From NCBI GenBank assembly GCA_016182905.1, contig JACPFR010000044.1, positions 59,000 through 122,999 of the forward strand: a stretch of DNA of 64,000 bases. Direction: 5' to 3'. The DNA comes from Elusimicrobiota bacterium (GTDB lineage Bacteria; Elusimicrobiota; Elusimicrobia; UBA1565; UBA9628). Positions 1-59,121 of the stretch are shown in pieces (within the stretch, counting starts at the first letter, position 1; each line of letters starts with the position of its first letter). Below the pieces are notes generated by a model, which worked only from the letters and a program-made list of their open reading frames with translations, was not told the origin of the DNA and did not search any database. The position numbers and the translations under genes were made by a program.

Positions 1-1332
1 AACGGGAGTTCTGTCGCTCTTGTCGACCTCCACCGTCTCGCCACCGAGACGGTGGACGTCGAAGGCTTTGGCGAAATCGTTCTTCACCGCATCGACTCCG
101 AAGTTCAAGATCGGACTTCCCAACTTCGCGGAATCACGTGGTGGGTGAAGGGGCGCATGGTGGGCGATCCCTCCTGGGAAGGCCTGGATGGTGAGGGCAA
201 CTACCTCGACGGCCGCACTACGCTCGCCAAGCGGTTCAGCTTCGTGGTCGAGGCGGACATCCTGAAGGACTCTGTGAAGGCTGACTGGGTGGCCTTCCGG
301 GCATCTCCGAAGGTCGAGGCGGTCCGCGAGGCGGTCCACACGCGCATCATCCATGCCCTGAACCTGGTTCAGGCCGAGAACAGGCGCGAGCGCAAGCGTG
401 CGACGCTCGCCCAACACCGCCAGCTCCTGGGCGAGTTGTCCATCACCTCGAAGCGCTACGTCGGGCAATTCATCGACGAGCTTCAGGAGAAATGTCCAAC
501 CATTTCGGAGAAGGATTTAGCCCGGACTGTCGAAATCTACGCGAAGATGGAACAGACCACCTCGGGCTACGACCTTTTGGGCCAGTTGGCTGCGTGTTCG
601 CCTGAGGACATCGACAAGTGGAACGGACTCATGAAGCAGTGGTCCGCGGGACACGCAGAGATTGTCCTTAACGAACTCGAGCGCCGCCTCAAGCTGATCG
701 CCAAGCTCCAGGATCTCGTTGAGACGGTGAAGACGGACGAGCTTCACGATCTCCAACCCTTGTTCGAGCGCGGGCTGTGGATGTTCGGCCCGGAATACGA
801 GGCGGTCGACTTCCACTCCAATCGAGGCCTGGCGACCATCGTCCGGGAATCCCTCGGAGGTACCACCAAGAACGTCGGTCGCGGCCGCCCTGATTTTGTG
901 GCTCTCCCGGAACGATCTATTGGCGTCTACGCGGCCGCCTCGTTTGGGCAAGACGGAGAGGTTTCAGGCGTCCGGAAGATCTTGATCGTTGAGTTGAAGA
1001 AAGGTGGCTTCGACTTGAAGCAGGGTGAGGTCGATCAGGCAAAGCGCTACGCCAAGGCGCTCCGCAAGGCCGGTGACGTGACTGCCGGGACCGTCATCAG
1101 CGCCATCGTTTTGGGCGCTACGATGGAAGCTGATCTGGACCCGGAGAAGATCGGCGATGCCACGTTCATCGAGCCCATGCTCTACCGTACGTTGCTCACC
1201 AGAGCTCACCAGCGCACCTTCAACCTTCAAAAGCGCCTGGAGGCTTCGGGTGCCAAGAGGCCTGTAGACACCGACGTCGAGTCGGTTCTCGAAGAAAAGG
1301 AGCTGCCCCTCAAAGACTCTGTTCGGGCCTAA
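1..1332 (+). CDS. 5'-truncated protein with C-terminal PD-(D/E)xK-like nuclease motif (possible defence nuclease, Shedu/DUF4263-like?)
   Basis: Frame 1 is open from base 1, so the gene continues upstream of the window. C-terminal GRPDFVAL...QDGEVSGVRKILIVELKKG fits a D-x13-E-x-K restriction-endonuclease-like motif. The gene sits beside the AbiE pair and a tRNA. Confidence 0.55.
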   Translation, partial: NGSSVALVDLHRLATETVDVEGFGEIVLHRIDSEVQDRTSQLRGITWWVKGRMVGDPSWEGLDGEGNYLDGRTTLAKRFSFVVEADILKDSVKADWVAFRASPKVEAVREAVHTRIIHALNLVQAENRRERKRATLAQHRQLLGELSITSKRYVGQFIDELQEKCPTISEKDLARTVEIYAKMEQTTSGYDLLGQLAACSPEDIDKWNGLMKQWSAGHAEIVLNELERRLKLIAKLQDLVETVKTDELHDLQPLFERGLWMFGPEYEAVDFHSNRGLATIVRESLGGTTKNVGRGRPDFVALPERSIGVYAAASFGQDGEVSGVRKILIVELKKGGFDLKQGEVDQAKRYAKALRKAGDVTAGTVISAIVLGATMEADLDPEKIGDATFIEPMLYRTLLTRAHQRTFNLQKRLEASGAKRPVDTDVESVLEEKELPLKDSVRA

Positions 1333-1344
1333 CTTCCTTGTCCG

Positions 1345-1368
1345 TCGGGAAAACAACTCATTCCCGAC
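1345..1368 (+). other. Stem-loop (GTCGGGAA / TTCCCGAC) 13 nt after the stop of the first gene; no U-tract
   Basis: 8-bp perfect stem with 8-nt loop seen directly in the sequence. It is not followed by a T-run, so its function as an intrinsic terminator is uncertain. Confidence 0.25.
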
Positions 1369-1453
1369 AGGCCAGATCGCGCAGCCGTTCTTGACGGAGC
1401 CGATCGGTCAGAATTCCAGGGATTGCAGACCGAATCGGATCGAAACAAAAGGC

Positions 1454-1514
1454 TTGACATAATCATTGTCCAGATCAATAATACCTATAGATAGTTTTAT
1501 ATATAGGTATTATT
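1454..1514 (+). promoter_or_regulatory. Promoter (TTGACA-17-AATAAT) overlapping a 13-bp perfect inverted repeat AATAATACCTATA-N12-TATAGGTATTATT; candidate AbiEi autoregulatory operator
   Basis: TTGACA at 1454-1459 and AATAAT at 1477-1482. Inverted-repeat arms at 1477-1489 and 1502-1514 end 4 nt before the abiEi ATG. AbiEi proteins are known to autorepress via inverted repeats in their promoter. Confidence 0.6.
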
Positions 1515-1518
1515 ATCC

Positions 1519-2121
1519 ATGCCCCGAGAATTCACCCGCCAACTCGACATCTTCAAAGCACACCGCGGCGGACTTCATTCGTCCGAAGCCATGCGCCTGG
1601 GAATCCATCCCAGGGCTCTTTATGCCATGCGCGACGCCGGGCTCATTGAAAGGCTCGGCCGCGGACTCTACCGATTCGCAAAAGCTCCCCCGCTCTCAAA
1701 TCCCGATCTGGTCACGGTTGCCCTCAGGGTCCCCAAAGGCATCGTCTGCCTGATCTCCGCGCTCTCCTTCCACGACATCACGACTCAGGTTCCGCATGCG
1801 GTCCATATCGCCCTGCCCTTCGGCACGGAGCGGCCGCGGCTCGATTCCCCTCCTACGCGTTTCTCTTGGTTCAAAGAGCCCGCCTATGGCAGCGGCGCCG
1901 AGACGCACAAGATCGACGGCGTCCACATCCGCGTCTACTCACCGGAGAAGACGGTGGCCGACTGCTTCAAGTTCCGCAACAAGATCGGCCTCGATGTGGC
2001 GCTCGAGGCACTGAAGCTGTGCCTCAAGAAGAAGCGCTCCAAGCCGGATGAACTGCTGAAGTACGCCCGCATCTGCCGCGTCGAGAAAGTCATGCGCCCC
2101 TACCTCGAGGCCCTGCTGTGA
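1519..2121 (+). CDS. abiEi: AbiEi-type antitoxin / transcriptional regulator of a type IV toxin-antitoxin (abortive infection) system
   Basis: 200-aa protein with AbiEi_4-like N-terminal wHTH region (HSSEAMRLGIHPRALYAMRDAGLIERLGRGLYRF). It overlaps the downstream nucleotidyltransferase gene by 4 bp. Confidence 0.8.
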   Translation: MPREFTRQLDIFKAHRGGLHSSEAMRLGIHPRALYAMRDAGLIERLGRGLYRFAKAPPLSNPDLVTVALRVPKGIVCLISALSFHDITTQVPHAVHIALPFGTERPRLDSPPTRFSWFKEPAYGSGAETHKIDGVHIRVYSPEKTVADCFKFRNKIGLDVALEALKLCLKKKRSKPDELLKYARICRVEKVMRPYLEALL

Positions 2122-3029
2122 AAAAACCGCTCAAGAACGTTGCCGCGTCAGTCCGGCAAAAACTCGCCAACCTCGCAAAAGAATCGAAGCGCCCGTTCGC
2201 CGAAATCCTTCAGTACTATGCGATGGAGCGGTTCCTTTATCGGCTCAGCCGGTCGGAATACAAGGATCGCCTCGTGCTCAAGGGCGCGCTGATGTTCGTC
2301 GCCTGGGGCACCCCGCGCTCGCGCGCCACCAAGGATATAGACCTCCTGGCGCGGACGGAAAATTCGATCGCGAATTTGGTGAAAGTCATCCAAGACATCT
2401 GCCGCATCGAAATCGAAACGGACGGAATCGTATTCGATCCGGCGCTCGTGAAGGGCGAGAAGATCAAAGAGGACGTGGATTATGAGGGCGTCCGGCTTCT
2501 ATTCCAGGGGAAGCTGGAACAAGCCCGTATTCATATGCAGATCGACGTCGGCTTCGGCGACAGCGTGACTCCGGCGCCGGCCGCGATCGACTACCCCGTG
2601 ATCCTCGATCTGCCCGCGCCGAAGCTCAAGGGCTACCCGCCGGAGACGGTGGTCGCGGAGAAGTTCGAGGCCATGGTCAAGCTCGGCATGATCAACACCC
2701 GAATGAAGGACTTCTATGATCTTTGGCTGCTGAGTCGTCAGTTCGACTTCGACGGCGAAACGCTGGCCGAGGCGATCCGGACGACCTTCGCGCACCGCGG
2801 CACGACTCTCACGCCAACGCCCACGGCGTTCACGTCCGCGTTCCACGAGGAGAAGCAGCCGCAATGGCGCGCGTTCCTTTCGCGCACGGGCCTCACCGGC
2901 GCGCCGGAGTCGCTCAAGGAGACTATCGCTCCCATCAAAGAATTCCTCATCCCAATCGCTGAGGCAGGCATGGTGGACCGAAAATTCTCCATGCGCTGGG
3001 CGACGCTGGGACCGTGGAAAGCCAAATGA
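2118..3029 (+). CDS. abiEii: AbiEii-type toxin, nucleotidyltransferase (DUF1814)
   Basis: 303 aa. N-terminal nucleotidyltransferase-fold motifs (GALMFVAWGTPRSRATKDIDLL). ATGA/GTGA start-stop overlap with abiEi. Confidence 0.8.
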   Translation: MKKPLKNVAASVRQKLANLAKESKRPFAEILQYYAMERFLYRLSRSEYKDRLVLKGALMFVAWGTPRSRATKDIDLLARTENSIANLVKVIQDICRIEIETDGIVFDPALVKGEKIKEDVDYEGVRLLFQGKLEQARIHMQIDVGFGDSVTPAPAAIDYPVILDLPAPKLKGYPPETVVAEKFEAMVKLGMINTRMKDFYDLWLLSRQFDFDGETLAEAIRTTFAHRGTTLTPTPTAFTSAFHEEKQPQWRAFLSRTGLTGAPESLKETIAPIKEFLIPIAEAGMVDRKFSMRWATLGPWKAK

Positions 3030-3063
3030 CATCCGGTCTCCCGGACTGGCCTACACGTCGATA

Positions 3064-3093
3064 TTGCGAACAACGCGCTAAAACTGGCATAAT
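3064..3093 (+). promoter_or_regulatory. Sigma70-like promoter TTGCGA-18-CATAAT upstream of tRNA-Phe
   Basis: Hexamers at 3064-3069 and 3088-3093. Followed by a 10-bp direct repeat ATCTCGACAA x2 (3121-3142) before the tRNA. Confidence 0.3.
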
Positions 3094-3211
3094 CGCCCGT
3101 CGGCATCCGATTTCCGTTTCATCTCGACAAGGATCTCGACAAAAATTCGGCGGAAGAGGCCCGATTCGGGTCGTGACGGGTCGAAATTCTGCTGAGATTT
3201 TTTATAGATTC

Positions 3212-3286
3212 GGCGGGGTAGCTCAGTGGTAGAGCACCGGTCTGAAAAACCGGGTGTCGACAGTTCGATCCTGTCCCCCGCCACCA
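3212..3286 (+). tRNA. tRNA-Phe: tRNA-Phe (anticodon GAA), CCA encoded
   Basis: GGCGGGG acceptor stem pairing with CCCCGCC. D-arm TAGCTCAGTGGTAGAGC. Anticodon loop CTGAAAA with GAA at positions 34-36. T-arm GTTCGATCC. 3' CCA present. Confidence 0.9.
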
Positions 3287-3290
3287 TTTT

Positions 3291-3725
3291 TTGAAGCGCG
3301 CTATTCCCATCGCCGTCGTCGCGGTCCTCGCGTCCTGGGCGCTCGCCCAGACCGCCGCGGCTCCCGTCGTGAGATCCGCCTCGCAGGTCGACTGGAAAGC
3401 CTCGGGCAGCCTCCCGCCCGGCGCCGAGTACCACCTGATCTACGAGGACCCCAAGACGCACGCGGTGCAGACGTTGGTGCGCTTTCCCCGGGGCTACGCC
3501 CTGTCCCCGCACTCGCATACCGCCGACGAGACCATCCTCGTGCTGAAAGGCAAGCTCGTCATCGAGCTCGCGGGGAAGAAGGAGACCTTGACCGCCGGCG
3601 CCTACGCGATGCTCCCCGGCGGCACGGTCTTCTCCCTTAAGGCTGCCGGCTTCGGCGGCGCGGACTTCCTCGCCGCCTTCAACGGGCCCTTCGACATGAA
3701 GGCCGCCCCCGCCTCCTCCAACTAG
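3291..3725 (+). CDS. Secreted cupin-domain protein
   Basis: TTG start 4 nt after the tRNA. Signal peptide MKRAIPIAVVAVLASWALAQ. Cupin motifs (LVRFPRGYALSPHSHTADETILVLKGKL ... AYAMLPGG). Confidence 0.6.
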   Translation: MKRAIPIAVVAVLASWALAQTAAAPVVRSASQVDWKASGSLPPGAEYHLIYEDPKTHAVQTLVRFPRGYALSPHSHTADETILVLKGKLVIELAGKKETLTAGAYAMLPGGTVFSLKAAGFGGADFLAAFNGPFDMKAAPASSN

Positions 3726-4639
3726 AGACGGAAGGGGATCGCCTTCGGAAGGACCTCGAACACGACGGGCGCCGTCCCGTCCGCGTCCCCGTCGATGTTG
3801 AGCGGCAGGGGCTCCTCGGAGTGTATCTCGACGCGGCGCGCGCGCCGCAGGACGACGCCGGGACGGCCGGCGTGTCCGCCCGAATACGCCCGGGGCAGCA
3901 GCGACATCAGCTCCGGACGCGTCATGTCGCCGATCGTGAGCAGGTCGAGCAGCCCGTCCTCCGCGTCCGCCTGCGGGGCGAGCCTCATGCCCCCGCCGAA
4001 GGTGCTCGTGTTGGCCGCGGCCACGAGGTGGTAGCGCGCCGCCGGCTCCGCGACGCCGTCGACCGTGAGGCGCATGCTCCGCGCCTTCGCCGTCGCCACG
4101 GACAGCACGCCCTCGACGAGATAGGTCAAGGTGCCGCCGAGGAACTTACCGCGCGCGGCCACGGACAGCGCCACGTCGCCGGGCAGCCCGAGCGCCGCGA
4201 CGTTGAGGAAGTGCCGGGAGCGCGGCGCGCCGTCCGCCGCGCGGAAGGTCGCGCGCCCCGCGTCGAGGCGCCGGCGCTTGCCCTCGGCGAAAGCCTTGGC
4301 CCATGCCTCGGGCTCTCGCGGCACGCCCATGTGATTGGCGAAGTCGCAGCCCGACCCGGCGGGGAAGGTCGCGAGGACCGTGTTGCGGCGCACATGCTCG
4401 GGCACCGCGAGGAAGCCGTCGACGACCTCGCCGAGGGTGCCGTCGCCGCCGACCGCGACGATGAGCTCCATGCCGTCCGCCGTCGCCTGCCGCGTCAGCT
4501 CCCGCCCGTGCCCCGGCTTCTCGGTGCGCGCCAGCTCCAGGTCCGGGAAAAGGTCCTTGGCGAGCGCGCGGGCCCTGTCCCAGCGCCCCCCCGCCCGCCC
4601 GTGCCCCGCCGCCGGATTGACTATGAACAGCGTTCTCAT
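3722..4639 (-). CDS. Diacylglycerol-kinase catalytic-domain family lipid kinase (YegS/BmrU-like)
   Basis: MRTLFIVNPAAGHGRA ... IVAVGGDGTLGEVVDG is the DAGK_cat signature. 305 aa. Confidence 0.8.
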   Translation of the reverse strand: MRTLFIVNPAAGHGRAGGRWDRARALAKDLFPDLELARTEKPGHGRELTRQATADGMELIVAVGGDGTLGEVVDGFLAVPEHVRRNTVLATFPAGSGCDFANHMGVPREPEAWAKAFAEGKRRRLDAGRATFRAADGAPRSRHFLNVAALGLPGDVALSVAARGKFLGGTLTYLVEGVLSVATAKARSMRLTVDGVAEPAARYHLVAAANTSTFGGGMRLAPQADAEDGLLDLLTIGDMTRPELMSLLPRAYSGGHAGRPGVVLRRARRVEIHSEEPLPLNIDGDADGTAPVVFEVLPKAIPFRL

Positions 4640-27512: not shown

Positions 27513-30330
<2,818 letters not shown>

Positions 30331-30344
<14 letters not shown>

Positions 30345-30732
30345 GCGCGGCCTCGGCTTTCAGGAACTCCTCGTACGCCGCCTCGGTCATGAGCTTCGCC
30401 GCCTCGTCGGGAGCGGACGCCTTGAGCTTGAACAGCCAGCCCTTGCCGAAGGCCTCGGCGTTGACGAGCGCGGGGTCCTTGACGACGTCCGCGTTCACCG
30501 CGGTGATCTCGCCGGAGACCGGGGCGTAGATGTCGAAGGCGGCCTTCACCGACTCGACGACGCAGCACGCCTCGCCCTGCTTGACCGTGCGGCCGACCTT
30601 CGGGGGTTCGACGAAGACCACGTCCGTGATCTCCTTCTGCGCGTGGTCGGAGATGCCCACCGTGCCCGCGTCGCCCTGCAGGTCCAGCCACTCGTGCGAC
30701 TTCATGTACATTAATTTCTTCGGATCGAGCAT
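30331..30732 (-). CDS. gcvH: Glycine cleavage system H protein
   Basis: HEWL ... VGISDHAQ ... lipoyl-lysine motif ESVKAA. 133 aa. Confidence 0.9.
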
Positions 30733-30735
30733 AAA

Positions 30736-31854
30736 TCAGGCCCCCTTCTTGAGGTTAGGTGAGATGTAAAACGGCGTTTTGACGATCTCCGCGGCGATGT
30801 CCCGTCCGTGAAGTACGACCGAGACTTTCGTTCCCGGCGGGAGGTCCGGTCTATCAAGGTACCCCGTCCCGATGCCCGCCTGCAGGCTCGGCGAGTACGT
30901 CGCCGAACAGAACTTCCCGATCTCCTTGCCGTCCAGCATGACCGAGGCGCCCGCGCGCGGCACGCCGCGCTCGAGCAGCTTCACGCCGGTGAGCTTCTTC
31001 TTGATGCCCTCCGCCTTCTGCTTGACCAAGGCGGCCTTGCCGATGAAGTCGCCCTTGTCCAGCTTCACGACCCAGCCGTAATTGGCCTCGAAGGTGCTGA
31101 GGTCGTCGTCGAGGTCCTGTCCGTACAGGAGGTAGCCCGCCTCGAGGCGGAGCACGTCGCGGGCGCCGAGGCCGCACGGCGCCGCGCCGAGCGAACGGCC
31201 CTGCGCGAGCAGGTCCTCCCAGACGCGGACGACGATCTCGCTGGGCACGATGAACTCGCAGCCGTCCTCGCCGGTGTAGCCGGTGCGGGTGATGAAGGAG
31301 GGCTGCCCGTACAGCTCGAGCTCAAGCGCGCCGAAGCGCGGCAGGGACGCCATCGCGGGGGCGATCATCGACGCGATCTCGGCCGCCTTCGGACCCTGGA
31401 CCGCGATCATGCCGTAGAGGTCGGACTTGTTCTCGAGCTTCACGTCGAAGCCCTTCGCGTGCTTCTGGAACCAGGCGAAGTCCTTGTCGGCCGTGGCCGC
31501 GTTGACGACGATCAGGTAGCGGTCCTTGGCGAGGCAGGAGACGATGACGTCGTCGACGACCCCGCCCTTCTCGTTGGGCAGGTGGGAGTAGATCGCCTTG
31601 CCCGGGCCGATGCGGGAGATGTCGTTGGCGTTGACCTTCTGAAGGAAGGCGAGCGCGCCGGGGCCCGTCGCGAACACCTGGCCCATGTGGGAGACGTCGA
31701 ACAGGCCGCAGCGGTGGCGCGCGGCCTCGTGCTCCTTCATGATCGATTCGTACTGGACCGGCAATTCCCACCCGTGGAAATCGACGATCTTACCGCCCAG
31801 GTTCTTGTGGCTTTCGTACAGCGCCGTGCGACGCGCGACAGCCGAGGTGGACAT
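30736..31854 (-). CDS. gcvT: Glycine cleavage system T protein (aminomethyltransferase)
   Basis: TALYESH ... VDFHGWELPVQY ... GLFDVSHMG. 372 aa. Confidence 0.9.
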   Translation of the reverse strand: MSTSAVARRTALYESHKNLGGKIVDFHGWELPVQYESIMKEHEAARHRCGLFDVSHMGQVFATGPGALAFLQKVNANDISRIGPGKAIYSHLPNEKGGVVDDVIVSCLAKDRYLIVVNAATADKDFAWFQKHAKGFDVKLENKSDLYGMIAVQGPKAAEIASMIAPAMASLPRFGALELELYGQPSFITRTGYTGEDGCEFIVPSEIVVRVWEDLLAQGRSLGAAPCGLGARDVLRLEAGYLLYGQDLDDDLSTFEANYGWVVKLDKGDFIGKAALVKQKAEGIKKKLTGVKLLERGVPRAGASVMLDGKEIGKFCSATYSPSLQAGIGTGYLDRPDLPPGTKVSVVLHGRDIAAEIVKTPFYISPNLKKGA

Positions 31855-50296: not shown

Positions 50297-51117
50297 AGCC
50301 GGCGCTGCTCCTCTGGCCGCTGCTCGCCGCGGCGCTCCTCTACCTCGGCCTGCGCCGCTTCGAGCGGTCGATGACCTTCGTCCCCTCGCGCGAGATGCTC
50401 GCCCACCCCGGCACCGTCGGCCTCGCCTACGAGCCTTTGTTCCTGACCGCCTCCGACGGCGTGAAGCTCCGGGCCTGGTGGATCCCCGGCCCATCCGAGG
50501 ATTCCCCGGTCATGCTCTGCCTGCACGGCAACGGCGGCAACCTCTCGCACCGAACCGACAAGATGCGCCTGTTTCACGACGCGGGCGCCGCCCAGCTGTG
50601 GCTCGACTGGCGCGGCTACGGCGAGAGCGCCGGGACCCCGGACGAGCCGGGCCTGTACCGCGACGCGCTCGCCGGCTGGGCGTGGCTCAACGCGGTCAAG
50701 GCCGTCCCCGCTTCGCGCCTCGTGCTCTACGGCGAGTCGCTCGGCGGCGCCCCGGCCATCGAGCTCGCCTCGCGCGTGCCCGCCGCCGGCCTGATCGTCG
50801 ACAGCTCGTTCACCTCGGCCGCCGACATGGCCCGGCACATCCTGCCCCGCTTCCCGGTCCGCCTCCTCAGCGCGCGCTTCGACAACCTCGCCCGCCTGCC
50901 GCGCGTGACGATCCCGACGCTCTTCCTGCACAGCCCGCAGGACGACATCATCCCCTACGCGATGGCCCTGAAGAACCTGGGCGCCTCCGGCTCGGCGAAG
51001 AAGCGCCTCGTCGACCTCAAGGGCTCCCACAACGAGGGCTTCCTCGACTCGGGGCCGACCTACCCGAAGGCGATCCGGGAATTCCTGGCGTCGCTGCCGG
51101 CGGAACCTAGGAAATAG
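50293..51117 (+). CDS. Alpha/beta-hydrolase (S33/S9-like serine hydrolase) with N-terminal membrane anchor
   Basis: GTGA overlap with the upstream gene. LCLHGNGGN ... GESLGG nucleophile elbow. Confidence 0.7.
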
Positions 51118-52000
51118 CCGTTCCCTCCCCCAGAATCCGCCGCCGCTCCGAATCGTTATGCGCCCTGCACAACAGCCGAAGATTTCCTATCTCGTCCGTG
51201 CCTCCGAGCGCGCGCGGCTTCACATGGTCCACCTCCAGGGACCTTCGTGCCAAGCACCTGACTCCCGTCGTTCCAATGTAGGCGCACCGCGCGCCGTCGC
51301 GCGCCCAAACGGAGCGGCGCACTCTTGCCGGGAGGGAGCTCCCGCCCTTAACGGGCGATAGGCGGCCCGGCAGTCCCTTTTCCGGATCGTGACGCGCCAG
51401 ATAATCCCGGGCTATCTCCAGAAGGATCTCGTCGATGGCTCCGCTCGGACATTTATGCCCCAGCAGTTGACGGGCTCGATCTATCGCCTCGCGAAGGGCC
51501 AGGGGACCTCGGAAACTGAAATCGACCCGCAGGACTGGAGCGCCATCCGTCCCCGACCCCGAAGCGACCGCGACGACACGGACCGAGCTCCTCCTTTCCG
51601 GTTCAGGCCGCAAGGGCGCGAGCATCTCGTCTATTTGCCGGGCGGATTTCCCCTCCGCCCGGGAGATGATCTCCGGGGCGTCCGGACGATGAACGAAGGG
51701 CGCTATCTTCGAAACGGCCGACAAAGACAGCTGACCGTCGGCCAGCGCTGAGAGCAGCTCGGGACGGGAGACCGTCGCCCGCGCGGCGTGGATCCTCCGA
51801 TATGATTCATCCTCGCTGAGCTTCAAGCGTCGGATGCAAAAGTCGAACGTGGAAGAATAGCCCCATTCTTCGGGAAGCTTCCGCCTGTCGGCTTCGCCGA
51901 GCCAGGACAGAAAGGAATGGAGGCGCTCGCGCTCCTCTTCCACGAAGCGATCGAGCCTCGCCAGCAGTTCCTCGCTCGACAACGACCTCGGGTCATCCAT
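51107..52000 (-). CDS. DUF222 + HNH endonuclease domain protein, in a roughly 62% GC patch
   Basis: C-terminal HNH motif EVDHVKPRALGGTDEIGNLRLLCRAHN. N-terminal DUF222-like region. Local GC is clearly below the surrounding 70-72%. Confidence 0.75.
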   Translation of the reverse strand: MDDPRSLSSEELLARLDRFVEEERERLHSFLSWLGEADRRKLPEEWGYSSTFDFCIRRLKLSEDESYRRIHAARATVSRPELLSALADGQLSLSAVSKIAPFVHRPDAPEIISRAEGKSARQIDEMLAPLRPEPERRSSVRVVAVASGSGTDGAPVLRVDFSFRGPLALREAIDRARQLLGHKCPSGAIDEILLEIARDYLARHDPEKGLPGRLSPVKGGSSLPARVRRSVWARDGARCAYIGTTGVRCLARRSLEVDHVKPRALGGTDEIGNLRLLCRAHNDSERRRILGEGTAIS

Positions 52001-52745: not shown

Positions 52746-54481
52746 CGCTTCTCGATCGGGTAGTAGTAGATCCCGAGGTTCACGGGGTTGTCGACGAAGC
52801 CCTTCACCCAGCCCCGCACGCCGTAGACCCCGGCGGGATGCACGGTGAAGATCGCCGGCGCCTCGTCGAAGCCCTTGGCCAGGATCTTCTTGTACAGCGC
52901 CGCGCGCTTGGCGGGCGACGACTCAGCCGCGGCCTTCTCTATCATAACGTCGAGCTCGGGGTTCGCGTAACCCTGGGCCGACGGGTAGCGCCCCTGCGAG
53001 TGGTAGAAGGCGTAGATGAAGTTGTGCGCGTCGGGATAGTCGGCGAGCCAGCCGCGGGCGAACAGCGGCATGAGCCGCCGCTGGGCCTTGTCCAGGAAGC
53101 TCGCCCAGTCCACGCCGCGCAGGTCGACGCGGAACTTCGGGTTCAGCTTCTCTACGTTCTTCTTGAGGATCTGCGCCGCCGCCTCGCGGTTCTCGGAGCC
53201 GGTGTTGTAGGTGAGGGTGAAGCGGAAGCCCTTGTCCCAGACCTTGCCGCCCCAGGCCTTGCGCAGATGCGCCTCGGCCTTCTTCAGGTCGTAGGCGTAG
53301 CGCGGCTGCTTCGCGTCATAGCCGGGGACGCTCGGCGGGATAGGCCCGAAGGCGCGGGCGGCGGTCCCCTTGAAGGTGTCGCGCATGATCGCGTCGTAGT
53401 CGAAGGCGTAGGAGAAGCCGCGGCGCACGTCGGCGTCGGCGAAGAAGTCCGGCGGGACGCCCTCGCCGTCGAGCTTGCCGGAGCCGATGTCGGGATTGGC
53501 GACCGGGTTGATCCTGACCGTGAAGAACAGCGCCGGGTCGGTCTGCAGGCGGAGCAGGCCGTCGAGCAGGACGGCGCCGGGGATGCCCGCCACCTGCGAC
53601 GCGTACGGGCGCGGGGTCTCGATGAGGTCGGCGTCGCCGGCCTGGAGCATGAGCTTGCGCGTGTTGAGCTCGGGGACGGCCTTGATCAGCACCTGCTTGA
53701 GCTTCGCCGGGCCGCGGAAGTACGCGTCGTGACGCGCCAGCAGCACGTACCGGGCGGTCTTGTCCCAGCGGACGAGCTTGAAGGGCCCCGCGCCGTTCAT
53801 GTGCTCGTGGAAGTAAGACTTCTCCTTGGGCGGATCGTTGAAATCCTTCCAGGTCGCGGCCGTCCCGTCCCAGTCTCCGTGAGCGACCGCCCAGGGCTTG
53901 GACATAATATATGACCATCTGGCCATGATCCCGAGGAAGGGCCCGAAGGGCCGCGGCAAGGAGATCACCACGTCGTTGCCGTTGACGACAATCGCTTTCT
54001 CCAGAGCGGCGTAATCCAACGTGATCGTTCCGGACGAGTTTCGCGTCGAAGGCACGCCCGCGATCGGCTCGAGCAAAAGCGCCGAGGGCCCCCCCGCGCG
54101 ATCCGTGATCATGAACCGCAGGAGCGAGTAGCGCACGTCCTCGGGGGTGACCTCGGAGCCGTCGTGGAACCGGACGCCCTTGCGGATCGGGAAGCGATAG
54201 GTCCGTCCATCCGGGGAGATCAGCTTGTTCTTGAGGGAAGGGACCTTCTCCGCGATGCGCGGCTCGTATTCGGACAGCGAGGAGCCCTTGAACGCGATCA
54301 GCGTCTCGTAGACGTTCTGGATCACCGACTGGCTCGACCCGTCGTACGGATAGGCCGGATCGAGGCCGGCGGCCTCCCCGATCTCGAGGTTGGTGAAGGT
54401 GTCCGGGTTCTTGACCGGCTCGGCGGAGGCGGCGACGGCGGCCAGCAGGAGGGCGGTGATCATGGGGCCAAGATAGCGCAT
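52742..54481 (-). CDS. ABC transporter substrate-binding protein, family 5 (peptide/nickel type)
   Basis: Start at MRYLGPMITALLLAAVAASA. SBP_bac_5 architecture. 579 aa. Confidence 0.8.
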   Translation of the reverse strand: MRYLGPMITALLLAAVAASAEPVKNPDTFTNLEIGEAAGLDPAYPYDGSSQSVIQNVYETLIAFKGSSLSEYEPRIAEKVPSLKNKLISPDGRTYRFPIRKGVRFHDGSEVTPEDVRYSLLRFMITDRAGGPSALLLEPIAGVPSTRNSSGTITLDYAALEKAIVVNGNDVVISLPRPFGPFLGIMARWSYIMSKPWAVAHGDWDGTAATWKDFNDPPKEKSYFHEHMNGAGPFKLVRWDKTARYVLLARHDAYFRGPAKLKQVLIKAVPELNTRKLMLQAGDADLIETPRPYASQVAGIPGAVLLDGLLRLQTDPALFFTVRINPVANPDIGSGKLDGEGVPPDFFADADVRRGFSYAFDYDAIMRDTFKGTAARAFGPIPPSVPGYDAKQPRYAYDLKKAEAHLRKAWGGKVWDKGFRFTLTYNTGSENREAAAQILKKNVEKLNPKFRVDLRGVDWASFLDKAQRRLMPLFARGWLADYPDAHNFIYAFYHSQGRYPSAQGYANPELDVMIEKAAAESSPAKRAALYKKILAKGFDEAPAIFTVHPAGVYGVRGWVKGFVDNPVNLGIYYYPIEKR

Positions 54482-54600
54482 CGCGCGAGCCGTGTAAAGC
54501 GCGCGAGGACGGATACCGCGCCTCCAACTTAAATTCACACGGCCCGCATGGCGCCGCCCCGCCCCCCAGGCTATCATCTGCCGATCCCACGGAGGAAGAG

Positions 54601-55473
54601 ATGAACAAGAGACTCAATCAGCCGGTCCAGGCCGCGCGGCTCTGCCGGGAGCTGGGCCTGACCTTGATCGGCCCCGACAGGGAGATACTGGCGGTGGGCG
54701 GCCTCGACTCGCTCGAGGAGCATTCTCTGGCCTTCGTGAGGGACCGCGCTCCCGGGGCGGGCTCGACCGGCACGGTGTTCGCGACCGCGCCCCTGCCCAT
54801 GCAGGGCCTGACCGTGATCCAGTCCCTGAAGCCGCGGCTCGACTTCATCCGCGCGCAGCATATCCTCCGGAAATCGCCCGGATTCCTGGAGGATTCCACT
54901 CCGCCCGACATCCACCCGACCGTCCAGGTCGGGCGCGGGGCGGTGATCGAGAACGGGGTGAGGATCGGCGAAGGCACCTGCATCGGCAGCGGCGTCGTCA
55001 TCAAGTCCGGCACCGTGATCGGCCGGCATTGCGAGATCAAATCGGGGGCGATCGTCGGCGAGGCCGGCTTCGGGTTCGAGCGCGACGAGGAAGGCCGCCC
55101 GATCAAGATGATCCAGATGGGCGGCCTGCGCATCGGCGATCACGTCGAGATCGGCAGCGTCAACACGGTGTGCCGCGGCGCGCTCGGCGACACGGTCATC
55201 GAGGATTACGTGAAGACCGACGACCACGTCCACATCGGCCACAACTGCCGCATCGGGTCGGGGACGATGATCACGGCCTGCGCGGAGATCAGCGGCTCGG
55301 TCACGATCGGGAAGAACGCCTGGCTCGCCCCGAACTGCTCGATCATGCAGAAGGTCACCATCGGCGACGGCTGCTTCATCGGCATCGGAGCCGTCGTGCT
55401 GCGCAGCGTCGAAGCCGGGGCCAAGATGTTCGGCAACCCCGCCATGCGGATCGTCGTCCCATCCGGCGCGTGA
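54601..55473 (+). CDS. LpxD-like hexapeptide-repeat N-acyltransferase paralog (UDP-3-O-acylglucosamine N-acyltransferase family)
   Basis: LpxD-type N-terminal domain (LTLIGPDREILAVGGLDSLEEHSLAFV). Left-handed beta-helix repeats and catalytic His region DDHVHIGHNCRIG. Lacks the C-terminal helical extension. Not in an lpxA/fabZ context. Confidence 0.7.
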   Translation: MNKRLNQPVQAARLCRELGLTLIGPDREILAVGGLDSLEEHSLAFVRDRAPGAGSTGTVFATAPLPMQGLTVIQSLKPRLDFIRAQHILRKSPGFLEDSTPPDIHPTVQVGRGAVIENGVRIGEGTCIGSGVVIKSGTVIGRHCEIKSGAIVGEAGFGFERDEEGRPIKMIQMGGLRIGDHVEIGSVNTVCRGALGDTVIEDYVKTDDHVHIGHNCRIGSGTMITACAEISGSVTIGKNAWLAPNCSIMQKVTIGDGCFIGIGAVVLRSVEAGAKMFGNPAMRIVVPSGA

Positions 55474-56234
55474 GGCGGCGGCCGGCGCTCGGCCCGAACG
55501 AGGCTCACGTCTGGCTCGTCGCGGACGAGGCGATCGAGGCCCGTCCCGGCCTTCTCGCGGAGTACCGCCGCCTGCTCTCGCCGGACGAGGAGCGGCGGCT
55601 GCGGCGGCTGAGCCATGACCGGGCGCGGCGCGAATATCTGACCGCCCGCGCCCTGTGCCGCACCGTCCTTTCGCGGTACGCCGACGTCGACCCCGGGGAT
55701 TGGCGCTTCGCCCGGAACGAGCACGGGCGGCCGGAGGTCTCCGGGCCGCGAGGCCGCGGGCGCCTGCGCTTCAATCTGTCGGGAACGAGAGGCCTGACCG
55801 CGTGCGCGGTGACCTGGGAGCTCGACGCCGGGGTCGACGTCGAGGCCCTGAGGACGGTCGGGGCCGCCGACGGGCTCGCGGACCGCTTCTTTTCCCCGCT
55901 GGAGGCGCGCGTCCTCAGGGACCTGCCTCCCGCCCGCCGGCGGGAGCGCTTCCTCGAATACTGGACGCTCAAGGAATCCTACATCAAGGCCACGGGCAAG
56001 GGGCTCTCGATCCCGCTCGACCGCTTCTCGTTCCATCTCGACGAGGGGCCGGGCATCCGGATCTCGTTCGCCCCCGGGATCGAGGACTCGCCGCGGCGAT
56101 GGCAGTTCGCCCTCCTGAGGCCGACGGACGGCCACGTCCTGGCCTTGGGAGTGCGGCGCTCCAGCGGAGCCGAGGTAGCGGTCACGTCGCGAGAGACCGT
56201 GCCGCTTCGTGACGCCGGCGCCGCGCCGCGCTGA
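55470..56234 (+). CDS. Sfp/EntD-type 4'-phosphopantetheinyl transferase
   Basis: GTGA overlap with the upstream gene. GVDVE and WTLKESYIKATGKGLS motifs. The FNLSG motif variant lacks the usual His. Confidence 0.8.
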   Translation: MRRRPALGPNEAHVWLVADEAIEARPGLLAEYRRLLSPDEERRLRRLSHDRARREYLTARALCRTVLSRYADVDPGDWRFARNEHGRPEVSGPRGRGRLRFNLSGTRGLTACAVTWELDAGVDVEALRTVGAADGLADRFFSPLEARVLRDLPPARRRERFLEYWTLKESYIKATGKGLSIPLDRFSFHLDEGPGIRISFAPGIEDSPRRWQFALLRPTDGHVLALGVRRSSGAEVAVTSRETVPLRDAGAAPR

Positions 56235-57084
56235 CCGGCCGCGCCGGCGGGGCGGAAAGGGCGCGGATCGCCTCCTCGGGAGACTTGAAATGGTCCAAGA
56301 GGGCGTGCAGCCAGCGCTCGATGCCGAACGCGACGCAGCCCGTGTAGGCGGGCTTGCCGTCGGCGGTCGTTATGCGGCAGCGGTCTCCGAAGAAGTTCCG
56401 GTGGAAATTCATCGAGCCGAACGCCAGCGATCCCCCGTAGACGAACTCCTCCTTCGTCGGGAACAGGGCCTGCATCGAGGCCCTCGGGTTCGCGGGCTGG
56501 AAGAAGGGGTCGGTGGCGGCCTTGATCTCGAACGGCAGACCGAGCCCGCGGAGGAACCCCTGGATCATGCCCTTGAACGAAAGGAGGTGCTCCTGGACAG
56601 CGTCCATGGGGCCGACGCAGACGATCTCGCGCATCGAGAAGCCCCAGAGCCGCGACAAGCCGGCGTATTCCGTCTCGTTGCGGAAGCAGCTCGCGATCGT
56701 CGTGACGTACGCCGGCGCGTCGAGGCGCGTGTCCTGCAGGTGCAGATAGACGTTGTAGCAGGCGGCCGAGGGGAGGACGTGCGCGCTCGACGTCATGTGC
56801 TCCGCCGCGATCTCCTCGACGCCGGCTTTGAGCGCGTACTCCGCCTCGAGCTTCGACGCGGCGATCCTGGAGACGGACGCCGCCAGGTGCGGGAAATTCT
56901 TGAAGTAATCGAAGCGGCTCAGGTCCTTGACGCGCATCAGCGGGGGGAACAGCATCGGAGCCGCCCGGCGCGTCCGCGCCCACTCCAGGAACCGCCGGTC
57001 CAACATCGTACGGATGCGGACCATCTCGGGACCCAACGTCGCCAGCCCCTGCTCGACGCTATACGCTGACTTGAGTCCTCTCAT
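56182..57084 (-). CDS. Amino acid:[carrier protein] ligase (truncated class II aaRS / atypical SerRS-like catalytic core, no tRNA-binding domain)
   Basis: Class II motif 2 CFRNETEYAG...REIV and motif 3 GCVAFGIERW. Candidate zinc-ligand Cys residues. About 300 aa with no N-terminal coiled coil. Lies immediately downstream of the carrier-protein gene. Confidence 0.7.
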   Translation of the reverse strand: MRGLKSAYSVEQGLATLGPEMVRIRTMLDRRFLEWARTRRAAPMLFPPLMRVKDLSRFDYFKNFPHLAASVSRIAASKLEAEYALKAGVEEIAAEHMTSSAHVLPSAACYNVYLHLQDTRLDAPAYVTTIASCFRNETEYAGLSRLWGFSMREIVCVGPMDAVQEHLLSFKGMIQGFLRGLGLPFEIKAATDPFFQPANPRASMQALFPTKEEFVYGGSLAFGSMNFHRNFFGDRCRITTADGKPAYTGCVAFGIERWLHALLDHFKSPEEAIRALSAPPARPVSAARRRRHEAARSLAT

Positions 57085-57328
57085 TTTTCCCCTCCTCCAG
57101 GATGTTGGTCCGGATCAGCCGCAAGGTGCGCAGCGAATTCGCGGCCGACCCGGCCGCCAGCGGGATCCGCCTGCCGGTGAGCTCTTCCATGAAATAGACG
57201 AAGTTGATGAACGTGACCGAATCCAGGATCCGGTTGTCGATCAAGTCGGTGTCCAGATCGATCTCCTTGACGTCAGGCCTCTCCCGCAGCAGCCACTTCT
57301 TGACCTCTCCGATCCGTTCGTCGTCCAT
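57059..57328 (-). CDS. Dedicated acyl/peptidyl carrier protein (89 aa)
   Basis: Phosphopantetheine attachment motif LDSV (Ser36) in helix II. GGAGGA ribosome-binding site. 26-nt overlap with the ligase gene. Confidence 0.7.
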   Translation of the reverse strand: MDDERIGEVKKWLLRERPDVKEIDLDTDLIDNRILDSVTFINFVYFMEELTGRRIPLAAGSAANSLRTLRLIRTNILEEGKNERTQVSV

Positions 57329-57340
57329 GTGTCCTCCTTC

Positions 57341-58204
57341 CTAATGCAACGCGTCGAGCCGCTCGACCATGCCGTAGGTCCGCAAGAAGGCGAGGGACCG
57401 GGAGAGGAGTATCCCGTGCTGCTTCCGCCGTCCGGGCTGCCGGAGCAGCTCCCGACGGAACCCGTAGGCGTCCCGGATCCCCGCGTCCGCGTACATCTGC
57501 GGGTTGTAGAACGACTGGAGGGTGAAGGAGACGTACTCCTTGAGCTGGCCGCGGAAGACCGCCTCTTCCTCGGGGCCCAAGCGGCCGAGCAGCGCGTGAA
57601 GGTGCCGGGCGATCTGCCGGCCGGCGGCGATGTGCCTCGATTCGTCGGCGTGGTGCGCCGCGTTCAGGGCGCGGACGATCGGGGGCAGCCGCGCGTCCCC
57701 GCTCATCCGGATGTTGAAATGATCCCCGATCTCCTCGAATATGAGGATGCGCAGGAACACCAGGAAGAGGTCGAGCTCGGGGCGGATGTCGTCCTCCGAG
57801 ACGCTGACCGTCGAATCGGGATAGATCTTGCCGTACCGCCGGCAGAATTCCGAGAAGAACCACATGTGGTGGTTCTCTTCAGCGATGAACCGGTGGAAGA
57901 AATCGGAAGGGACCTCGAAGCCGCCCGTGTGGATGTGCCGGCTGATCACCATGATCAGCTCGCGCTCGCCGTGAAGGGTCAGGCTGAAGAAATTCAGGAG
58001 CGCGCGCCGGCTGAGCGCCTTCAGGGTCCGCTCGTCGAGGACGTCCATCAGCGGCGTGCCGTGGACGGACATGAGCTCCGGCGGCATCAGCCATTCGTCC
58101 TCGCCGATGCTTCCCGGCCATGCGAAGCGGCGGCGAGGATCGCAGTCGCGCTCGATCGAGCTCGCCGTCAGCTTCTCCAGAACCGCCGCGTAGGCCTCGC
58201 TCAT
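57341..58204 (-). CDS. Ferritin-like di-iron oxygenase of the AurF/CmlI (arylamine N-oxygenase) family
   Basis: Two ExxH motifs plus an extra His (EENHH, EEIGDH, HADESRH). 287 aa. First gene of the operon with the carrier protein and ligase. Confidence 0.6.
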   Translation of the reverse strand: MSEAYAAVLEKLTASSIERDCDPRRRFAWPGSIGEDEWLMPPELMSVHGTPLMDVLDERTLKALSRRALLNFFSLTLHGERELIMVISRHIHTGGFEVPSDFFHRFIAEENHHMWFFSEFCRRYGKIYPDSTVSVSEDDIRPELDLFLVFLRILIFEEIGDHFNIRMSGDARLPPIVRALNAAHHADESRHIAAGRQIARHLHALLGRLGPEEEAVFRGQLKEYVSFTLQSFYNPQMYADAGIRDAYGFRRELLRQPGRRKQHGILLSRSLAFLRTYGMVERLDALH

Positions 58205-58390
58205 GACCCCTCCTCCGACTCGCGCGCCTGAGCGGTAGTGTAGTCCGGCGCGGCCGGGAATCCCATTCGCGCTGTGTCATGATTTTATATGCGCCGGCTT
58301 CAAACCGCCAGAGATTACAGGCCGCCGCCTCATCGGATTGTTTGACCTAAATCAACTAACGACCCTCGATGCCGTGATAGAATCGGGCTT

Positions 58391-59121
58391 ATGGAAGCCA
58401 ACTGCGCCTCGAAGCGTTCGTGCCGGTTATTCGAGTTCCTCGAGTCCTCGATCGGCAAAAAAATCATGGTCGCCGCGGCGGGGATACTCCTGTGCGGCTT
58501 CCTCGTCACCCACCTCGCCGGGAACCTGCTGATGTTCGCCGGCGGCTCGGCCTTCGACCGTTACGCCGAGGCGCTGGAGCACAACCCGCTGCTTCCGATC
58601 GCCGAGCTCGGCCTCGCGGCGCTGTTCCTCCTTCACATAGTCCTCTCCATCCGGGCCACGCTCGCCAACCGGGCCGCCCGCCCCGAGGGCTACCAGGTCT
58701 ATAAGGGAAAGGGCGCGCGCACGCCCGGCTCGCGCACGATGGCGATCACGGGGCTGCTCATCCTCGCCTTCGTCATCGTCCACGTCGCGACCTTCAAGTA
58801 CGACGTCGGCGGCCTGAAGGGCCAGATCGCGGGACAGGAGGAAAGCCTTTTCTCCCACGTGGTCGGCTGGTTCGCCAATCCCTGGTACTCGATCTTCTAC
58901 GTCGTCGCGGTCGGCGGGGTGGGACTGCACCTGTCCCACGGCGTGCAGAGCGCCCTGCAGACCTTCGGCGTGAATCACCCCCGCTACACGCCGGCGCTGA
59001 AGAAGCTCGGCCTGGCGTTCGCCTTCCTGATCTTCGCGGGCTTCGCGTCTTTGCCCGTTTATTTCGGCTTTATCCACAAGACCGCGGACGCCTGCTGCGC
59101 GCAGGTCGAAGGAGGCTCCAA

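Follow-up and report, generated by a model that had tools for sequence, protein, structure and literature searches.

A five-gene cassette of Elusimicrobiota that may modify an amino sugar with an N-oxidised acyl group built on a private carrier protein

The DNA stretch analysed here (the window) comprises 64,000 nucleotides of an Elusimicrobiota bacterium (assembly GCA_016182905.1, contig JACPFR010000044.1, positions 59,000 to 122,999 of the forward strand). We studied its interval 54601-58204, for which a first-pass annotation had proposed an undescribed pathway of five adjacent genes. All five open reading frames (ORFs) are present and have the high GC content at third codon positions that is typical of real genes (GC content of the window ~68%). 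The five family assignments were upheld by Pfam and NCBIfam searches, by motifs and by fold comparisons. The interval encodes an LpxD-like left-handed beta-helix protein (LbH), a phosphopantetheinyl transferase (PPTase) and a trio, which consists of an AurF-like di-iron oxygenase, a carrier protein (CP) and a ligase resembling aminoacyl-tRNA synthetases (aaRS). Judged from homology and gene context, there is roughly an even chance (about 0.5) that this cassette uses its private CP to build an N-oxidised small acyl group for attachment to an amino sugar. The genes, and the evidence on which their assignment is based, are:

54601..55473, + strand: LpxD-like LbH N-acyltransferase, 290 aa (Pfam, NCBIfam, PDB and fold matches)
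55470..56234, + strand: Sfp-type 4'-phosphopantetheinyl transferase, 254 aa (Pfam, NCBIfam, motifs)
56182..57084, - strand: aaRS-like amino-acid:carrier-protein ligase, 300 aa (Pfam, NCBIfam, PDB)
57059..57328, - strand: dedicated carrier protein, 89 aa (conserved Ser, position, weak NCBIfam match)
57341..58204, - strand: ferritin-like di-iron oxygenase of the AurF/CmlI class, 287 aa (Pfam PF11583, ligands, fold)

The PPTase gene starts with a GTG located within GTGA and overlaps the stop codon of the LbH gene by 4 bp, which confirms the coupling of these two genes described previously. The PPTase and ligase genes converge and share 53 bp at their 3' ends (window 56182-56234), leaving no space for terminators between the two transcription units; the same arrangement, with an overlap of 32 bp, is seen in L007, one of the related loci introduced below. 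Within the trio, the CP gene overlaps the start of the ligase gene. The cassette lies between housekeeping genes, with the gene of an ABC substrate-binding protein (SBP) and nth at one end and sdhCAB at the other. Positions 54000-58700 were scanned against Rfam by E-value, also for a glycine riboswitch upstream of the oxygenase operon; the only match was a chance one to a miRNA. A scan of the cluster for promoters and terminators gave nothing above shuffled expectation. By tblastn, none of the five proteins has a paralog in the window; in particular, no second LpxD was found.

For the ligase, the only Pfam match is the class II core tRNA-synt_2b (PF00587), which covers residues 109-265 of the 300 aa; neither Pfam nor NCBIfam detected a Seryl_tRNA_N, an anticodon-binding or any other tRNA-binding domain. 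The nearest solved structures are those of the amino-acid:[acyl carrier protein (ACP)] ligase 1 Bll0957 (4h2w, 3mey; E ~5e-26), to which the protein is ~30% identical over residues 41-263; the other solved relative, a SerRS of the methanogen type, is a very weak match. These results agree with the previous proposal that the enzyme is not a bona fide tRNA synthetase, and its class II motifs 2 (FRNE) and 3 (GIERW) were likewise found as described. The Zn triad Cys109/Glu153/Cys250, of a kind inherited from methanogen-type SerRS, is invariant in 26 homologs and aligns to the motifs AACY, MRE and TGCVAFG of Bll0957. NF005479, which is the "amino acid--[ACP] ligase" model of NCBIfam, matches with E=2.9e-37 and 128 bits, which is below its cutoff of 357; on sequence grounds we assign the ligase to a sister subfamily of this curated equivalog and not to the equivalog itself. 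In total, 1420 homologs were found, and GenBank contains an identical (100%) protein from a groundwater Elusimicrobia metagenome-assembled genome.

Bll0957, Atu2573 and Bll6282 are the amino-acid:[carrier protein] ligases reportedly characterised by Mocibob et al. in 2010 and 2013 (PDB 3mey, 4h2w). For Bll0957, adenylation of a small amino acid and its thioesterification to the CP are said to have been shown both biochemically and structurally. By analogy, the window ligase probably charges the phosphopantetheine thiol of the CP with a small amino acid, glycine being favoured. Deriving the amino-acid specificity from pocket residues was considered and dropped as unreliable without structures to compare. 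The known ligases of this kind load Gly or Ala, and in a 2022 review the rhizobial enzymes are still listed without a known biological role (PMC9437257). Rhizobial loci of this type were tied to a Rossmann-fold oxidoreductase and to lipopolysaccharide genes in an early note (PMC2922099).

The CP has no match in Pfam and only a weak one in NCBIfam, to the ornithine-lipid ACP model (E=1.4e-4); its identity is therefore based on the combination of this match with its gene position and an invariant Ser motif. Ser37 (codon 57218-57220), which lies in LDSV, a variant of the motif (I/L)DS, is invariant across 23 orthologs; it is the predicted attachment site of the phosphopantetheine. Placing the CP in the OlsH/ornithine-lipid pathway was rejected, as the resemblance is that of a generic ACP (22 bits versus a cutoff of 130). 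The PPTase was matched by the Pfam entries ACPS (PF01648, E=4.6e-20) and PF22624, with HetI as the top NCBIfam model, and carries both Sfp signatures, GVDVE (GxD.E) and WTLKESYIKATG (W/FxxKES/AxxK). Homologous PPTases are encoded beside the trio in L007, L008, L021, L030-34, L037-38 and L091. L005 has no PPTase gene, and judged from this locus the enzyme appears dispensable to the cassette.

The oxygenase matches the Pfam family AurF (PF11583) over its full length (E=6.9e-30, 104.6 bits versus a cutoff of 29.6). Its seven metal ligands (E82, E110-x-x-H113, E157 and H184-x-x-x-E188-x-x-H191) are invariant in the orthologs, and H184/E188/H191 align to H223/E227/H230 of AurF. Among AurF-class proteins, the extra (seventh) His is a hallmark of N-oxygenases (PMC12154687). 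An AF2 model with a pLDDT of 90.5 gave AurF (2jcd, 3chu) and CmlI (5hyh) as top folds (TM 0.65 for 2jcd and 5hyh), ahead of R2lox and RNR R2. Sequence identity to AurF and CmlI is only 11-14%. A single-sequence PDB search returned only a bacterioferritin (E=0.005), and a profile search reached AurF only at E=0.03, which is why the protein was assigned to its class by Pfam and by the fold comparison. By the same evidence, together with the ligands, the protein is of the AurF/CmlI class with an extra His, as claimed beforehand, and the identity of a fatty-acid desaturase was ruled out. The products of AurF-class enzymes vary by member and comprise hydroxylamine, nitroso, nitro, nitronate or azoxy compounds (PMC12154687).

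In order to survey the trio, one genome per GTDB species was scanned with a pattern derived from the ligase alignment. Among the resulting 253 matching stretches the best 80 were taken, and the locus counts given below refer to 81 distinct, ligase-seeded loci (designated, like the further loci mentioned, by L and a number), in which partner genes were sought within 4 kb on the same strand. An AurF-like gene was found in 74 loci, a CP gene in 76 and both in 71; in these 71 complete loci, the order oxygenase-CP-ligase is almost always kept. The hosts belong to six phyla (Elusimicrobiota, Acidobacteriota, Pseudomonadota, Chloroflexota, Bacillota and Actinomycetota) and include a Paenibacillus, many Streptomyces, Kitasatospora and other actinomycetes. 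This arrangement is not due to chance. Of the conserved co-occurrence that the first-pass annotation had called for, the part concerning the trio thus stands, whereas the full set of five genes occurs in one narrow clade of Elusimicrobia, and even there the PPTase is missing from L005. Clustering of the neighbouring ORFs and annotation of representatives yielded six recurrent architectures, which involve fatty acyl-AMP ligases (FAAL), ketosynthases (KS), non-ribosomal peptide synthetases (NRPS) with condensation (C), adenylation (A), peptidyl carrier protein (PCP) and thioesterase (TE) domains, and nitronate monooxygenases (NMO):

Type A, ~15 Streptomyces loci: FAAL-ACP, C-A-PCP-TE NRPS, EamA, PPTase, O-methyltransferase, M20 peptidase
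Type B, ~20 Streptomyces loci: condensation-like protein, threonine aldolase, agmatine-deiminase-like protein
Type C, 8 loci of Burkholderiaceae, Paenibacillus, Kitasatospora and Streptosporangiaceae: NMO directly after the ligase
Type D, ~9 loci: FAAL-ACP/KS clusters, PPTase after the ligase
Type E, Acidobacteriota: large NRPSs
Type F, Elusimicrobiota: the architecture of the window

In L090 (Luteimonas abyssi), an oxygenase-CP pair is accompanied by an AMP-binding loader instead of the aaRS-like ligase. It follows that different loaders can be used and, evidently, that the oxygenase acts on a tethered substrate. The locus (L090:6102-13580) contains an oxygenase of 41% identity and a CP of 81 aa, flanked by two AMP-binding enzymes, a thioester-reductase/hydrolase fusion and a HIT protein, so that both loading and release differ from those in the window. 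In clusters of the FAAL/KS type, a conserved 363-aa protein without a Pfam match is encoded directly upstream of the oxygenase (L034:7731-8822, with orthologs in L024, L030, L037, L038, L054, L060 and L084).

The partners of the trio point to the chemistry of its oxygenase. An NMO gene (PF03060, E=5e-36 and 2e-35) follows straight after the ligase in the 8 loci of type C, which belong to three phyla, and in L042 (Paenibacillus) the ligase and NMO genes overlap. An O-methyltransferase accompanies the trio in ~15 Streptomyces clusters. The window oxygenase is 40-48% identical to its orthologs in both kinds of cluster. According to papers citing He and Ryan (2021), a di-iron oxygenase converts PCP-bound glycine to a nitronate, the fates of which are O-methylation toward enteromycin carboxamide or denitrification by an NMO (PMC9967187, PMC11035981). 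Since the partners of the trio are the two published nitronate-processing enzymes, the di-iron enzyme is most likely nitronate-forming and acts on glycyl-S-CP. Based on this strong context evidence, the trio family most probably makes a carrier-bound nitronate, with glycine as the most probable precursor. Neither an O-methyltransferase nor an NMO gene occurs in the window cluster or in L005-L008.

The Paenibacillus locus lies on the chromosome of P. amylolyticus (L042:8844-18282) and forms a + strand block of ten genes with a third-position GC content of ~0.3, compared to ~0.55 in its flanks. The block encodes oxygenase, CP, ligase and NMO, two phosphatases and two ABC exporters; it is probably a horizontally acquired cassette of the denitrification type in a cultured organism.

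LbH is related to LpxD in sequence and fold. It contains hexapeptide repeats (Pfam Hexapep, E=1.5e-26), among solved structures it is closest to LpxD (3pmo, E=5e-30; 3eh0, residues 108-280 of the query versus 134-306 of the 341 residues of the chain), and the top 25 hits of a fold search are all LpxD. His214 (codon 55240-55242) aligns to the catalytic His (HN motif) of LpxD from P. aeruginosa and E. coli; among 27 homologs, H211 is invariant, H214 is conserved in at least 90%, and the GFGF loop is conserved. The N-terminal alpha/beta domain, which is uridine-binding-like and modelled with a pLDDT of 85-95, also matches the UDP-binding N-terminal domain of MurF. GenBank annotates the protein as LpxD. 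In contrast, it scores below both curated LpxD cutoffs (PRK00892, 176.7 bits versus 207; TIGR01853, 161 versus 242.5). Moreover, the chain stops 10 residues past the position aligned to residue 306 of E. coli LpxD, where that enzyme has ~35 residues left; ending 10 residues after the beta-helix, LbH therefore has no C-terminal helical domain. The window contains no lpx or fabZ gene, and LbH has no fabZ, lpxA or lpxB beside it, in agreement with the earlier reading that it lies outside an lpx/fabZ cluster; its neighbours are the genes of the ABC substrate-binding protein and the PPTase. By these sequence comparisons, LbH is best classed as LpxD-like and not as LpxD, and the label "LpxD paralog" used before holds only in the former sense.

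Homologs of LbH give further hints at its function. The subfamily comprises proteins of 285-305 aa (2454 matches). Genes of members with 63-65% identity follow another dedicated ACP gene at a distance of 7-8 bp (L088, L089); this ACP has ~100 aa and the motif IDSLGVVEL, and its gene closes an operon of an AMP-forming ligase, an AsnB-like amidotransferase and a NadE-like PP-loop protein. Other homologs (~55% identity) occupy polysaccharide clusters beside PIG-L deacetylases, WbqC and glycosyltransferases. It appears that the short LpxD-like transferases draw on private carrier proteins as donors of custom acyl groups. The cassettes L088:1032-6917 and L089:3154-8870, which encode AMP-ligase (exosortase-type, TIGR03098-like), AsnB-like amidotransferase, NadE-like protein, ACP and LbH, are apparently uncharacterised and may serve CP-dependent N-acylation of sugars. 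In L085:5638-8912 and L086:6884-10756, LbH homologs occur with DUF2332, PIG-L and WbqC, in clusters that also contain Wzy, GT4 and sulfotransferases.

Whether LbH belongs to the cassette was judged from its neighbourhood in relatives. The gene adjoins the trio in the window and in L005, L007 and L008; in L006 the contig ends. The window, L005, L006 and L008 share the sdh/SBP synteny, whereas L007 has the same five genes within different flanks (OEP/RND pump, DUF2267). In L005, the closest relative by synteny (ligase 84% identical), the PPTase has been lost and LbH retained, ending 26 bp from the ligase gene (L005:10894-10920). The same locus has an extra ORF between sdhC and the oxygenase gene (L005:7811-8764), which encodes a secreted-looking protein of 317 aa with a weak match to DUF4349. 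On a 3604-bp metagenome contig (JGI 3300047160) with a ligase of 67% identity, 2 bp separate the end of a PIG-L deacetylase gene from the oxygenase gene that follows it; a convergent gene after the ligase, probably that of a PPTase, is cut by the contig end. Deacetylation followed by re-N-acylation of a GlcNAc-type sugar is the logic of LpxC and LpxD. Because of the persistent adjacency, its survival of the PPTase loss, the pairing of homologs with ACP genes, the polysaccharide context and the PIG-L neighbour, CP-dependent N-acylation of an amino sugar is the best reading of LbH.

In the pathway that we propose, the Sfp-type PPTase would convert the CP to its holo form at Ser37 (step 1). The ligase would adenylate a small amino acid, for which glycine is the most probable candidate, and thioesterify it to the CP (step 2). 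The AurF-like enzyme would then oxidise the tethered alpha-amino group (step 3); the likeliest result is a nitronate (aci-nitroacetyl) thioester, alternatives being the oxidation levels of a hydroxylamine, a nitroso compound or an oxime. In the weakest step (step 4), LbH would use His214 to move the acyl group from the CP to a nucleotide-linked amino sugar, the free amine of which would accept it. This would yield a cell-envelope glycoconjugate with an N-(oxidised glycyl) group. Steps 1 to 3 draw on homology to characterised systems and on a very strong conservation of gene order, whereas step 4 draws on an adjacency restricted to one clade and on the other contexts in which the LbH subfamily is found. 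CP-bound glycine nitronate would thereby have a third fate, beside O-methylation/NRPS and denitrification by an NMO. The more specific claim that Elusimicrobia decorate an amino sugar, either in a glycan of their envelope or in a lipid A-like molecule, with an N-oxidised glycyl group (nitroacetyl/nitronate or hydroxyiminoacetyl) is tentative; we consider it possible though doubtful.

Several observations weigh against the proposed pathway. Its steps are deduced from homology and gene context, and the putative specificity for Gly follows only from the partner genes and the Bll0957-like pocket motifs of the ligase. A nitroacetyl thioester is labile, and the window cluster has no methyltransferase or NMO to process it. 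The overall model of LbH is of moderate quality (pLDDT 72, global TM ~0.3). In LpxD, the C-terminal helical domain forms the coiled coil of the trimer and, in structures of LpxD-ACP complexes, the ACP-docking site; LbH, as judged from its alignment, is without this domain. Its gene lies on the strand opposite to the trio, and no genes of sugar-nucleotide synthesis or glycosyltransferases are found nearby in the window. Finally, LbH occurs within 10 kb in none of the other 77 loci, and its link to the trio is confined to one narrow Elusimicrobia clade (ligase identity 72-87%).

Alternatively, the trio, with or without the PPTase, could be self-contained and LbH an unrelated neighbour that uses a conventional acyl donor in ordinary glycan or lipid A synthesis; the thioester would then be hydrolysed or decompose to nitroacetate/nitromethane, glyoxylate oxime or nitrite. 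We regard this explanation as rather unlikely. It is in line with the 77 of 81 loci that pair the trio with partners other than LbH, with subfamily members that have no CP gene nearby (L085, L086, L087) and with the convergent orientation of LbH and trio, which, being on opposite strands, are therefore not a single transcript. It leaves unexplained, however, why LbH stays beside the trio in two flanking contexts and after loss of the PPTase, why it is translationally coupled to the very PPTase that serves the CP, and why its homologs repeatedly follow directly after dedicated ACP genes. The PIG-L sugar deacetylase gene abutting the trio in a divergent relative speaks against it, too, and for product release there is neither a thioesterase nor a condensation domain nor an NMO in the cluster. 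The idea that LbH is the genuine LpxD of the organism, which uses 3-hydroxyacyl-ACP and lies beside the cassette by chance, is favoured by the top family and fold matches, the preserved catalytic His and GFGF loop and the GenBank name. Given the two missed cutoffs, the missing helical domain, the lack of fabZ, lpxA and lpxB beside it in the window, and a subfamily that is found in ACP/AMP-ligase operons and polysaccharide clusters, not in lipid A clusters, we judge it quite improbable.

The logic of the pathway could also be right and its chemistry different: the ligase may load Ala, Ser or another small amino acid, and the oxygenase may catalyse N-hydroxylation, C-H hydroxylation or desaturation, so that, for example, an N-hydroxy- or beta-hydroxy-aminoacyl group would be transferred instead of nitronate/nitroacetyl. 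The dual Gly/Ala use by known ligases (PMC9437257), the diversity of AurF-class products (PMC12154687) and the low identity of the oxygenase to AurF and CmlI leave room for this variant, and even the orthologs from NMO and O-methyltransferase clusters share just 40-48% of its residues. These orthologs nevertheless form the same group (reciprocal order, 40-48% identity) and are coupled to NMO and O-methyltransferase genes, and all seven ligands including the His of the N-oxygenases are invariant; we hold a different chemistry to be unlikely. A transfer of an N-oxidised small acyl group from the CP to an amino sugar remains our preferred interpretation.

With respect to novelty, the gene calls and the logic of the first-pass annotation were largely right and its claim of an undescribed pathway overstated. 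As far as the published work is accessible through citing papers, the front half belongs to a type of pathway that is already known (PvfB, AlmD, the glycine nitronate cassette), whereas the sugar N-acylation at its end appears to be new and is plausible as a new variant. The suggestion of an acyl transfer to an amino sugar by LbH gained from the ACP-gene pairing of its homologs and the PIG-L gene beside a trio, and lost from the clade-restricted link between LbH and trio. Our literature searches, in which He and Ryan (2021) was reached via citing papers only, retrieved no description of the combination of an aaRS-like ligase with an AurF-type enzyme or of a coupling to an LpxD-like protein.

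The trio, as found in the window and more than 250 relatives, suggests that one large subfamily of amino-acid:CP ligases is a dedicated loader for AurF-like oxygenases, which provides a concrete and testable function. The Elusimicrobia version would replace the NRPS, methyltransferase or denitrification ending by an LpxD-like transferase. If true, N-oxygenated amino-acid chemistry, so far seen in antibiotics and signalling molecules, also decorates envelope sugars of an uncultured phylum; this would be the first N-O-functionalised glycoconjugate made by such a route and the first physiological role of the amino-acid:CP ligase family outside secondary metabolism. In addition, the locus points to a large uncharacterised family of short LpxD-like transferases.

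Three further features of the window may be mentioned. On the - strand, three consecutive ORFs at 27513-31854 resemble gcvT, gcvH and gcvP by eye only and have no evident link to the cassette. Also on the - strand, an ORF with an HNH-nuclease-like C-terminus (51107-52000) lies between a hydrolase gene and nth; it is 72% identical in L005 and L008, compared to 81-97% for the flanking genes. At positions 1-4000 the GC content drops to 0.59-0.63, versus ~0.70 across most of the window.

The cassette can be compared to several known systems. It shares with the Bll0957-type ligases the truncated class II aaRS core, the Cys/Glu/Cys Zn triad and the adjoining small CP gene; unlike these, the window ligase represents a distinct subfamily (128 versus 357 bits) that is tied to an AurF-like oxygenase. 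A CP-tethered glycine and a ferritin-like di-iron oxygenase are also the elements of the enteromycin-carboxamide nitronate cassette, as far as it is described in the citing papers; compared with that description, the window cluster has no O-methyltransferase, NMO or NRPS, and the sole downstream candidate is the LpxD-like acyltransferase. As in PvfB/HamC and the althiomycin enzyme AlmD, an AurF-class N-oxygenase would act on an aminoacyl thioester and not on a free arylamine (PMC12154687, PMC9967187). In those enzymes, the substrate is tethered to an NRPS T domain, with an A domain as its loader, whereas CP and aaRS-like loader of the window are free-standing.

For the second half of the pathway, LpxC/LpxD is the closest parallel: the acyl group comes from a CP and is transferred by a beta-helix N-acyltransferase whose N-terminal domain is of the uridine-binding type and whose catalytic His lies in the HN motif, and the PIG-L gene beside the trio of a relative mirrors the order of deacetylation and N-acylation. 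LbH differs from LpxD by its missing C-terminal helical domain, its scores below the cutoffs and the lack of an lpx cluster, and its donor would be an oxidised aminoacyl-CP instead of a 3-hydroxyacyl-ACP. The supply of an unusual acyl or aminoacyl group to an envelope polymer by a private CP and a dedicated loader is likewise known from the exopolysaccharide (EPS) cassettes of the exosortase/PEP-CTERM type (TIGR03098, TIGR03108), which are resembled by the operons that end with LbH homologs of 63-65% identity, and from the D-alanylation system DltA/DltC. In contrast to both, the loader of the window is aaRS-like and an oxygenase would edit the tethered group; moreover, the transfer in the Dlt system follows an MBOAT/DltD route and does not involve a beta-helix transferase.

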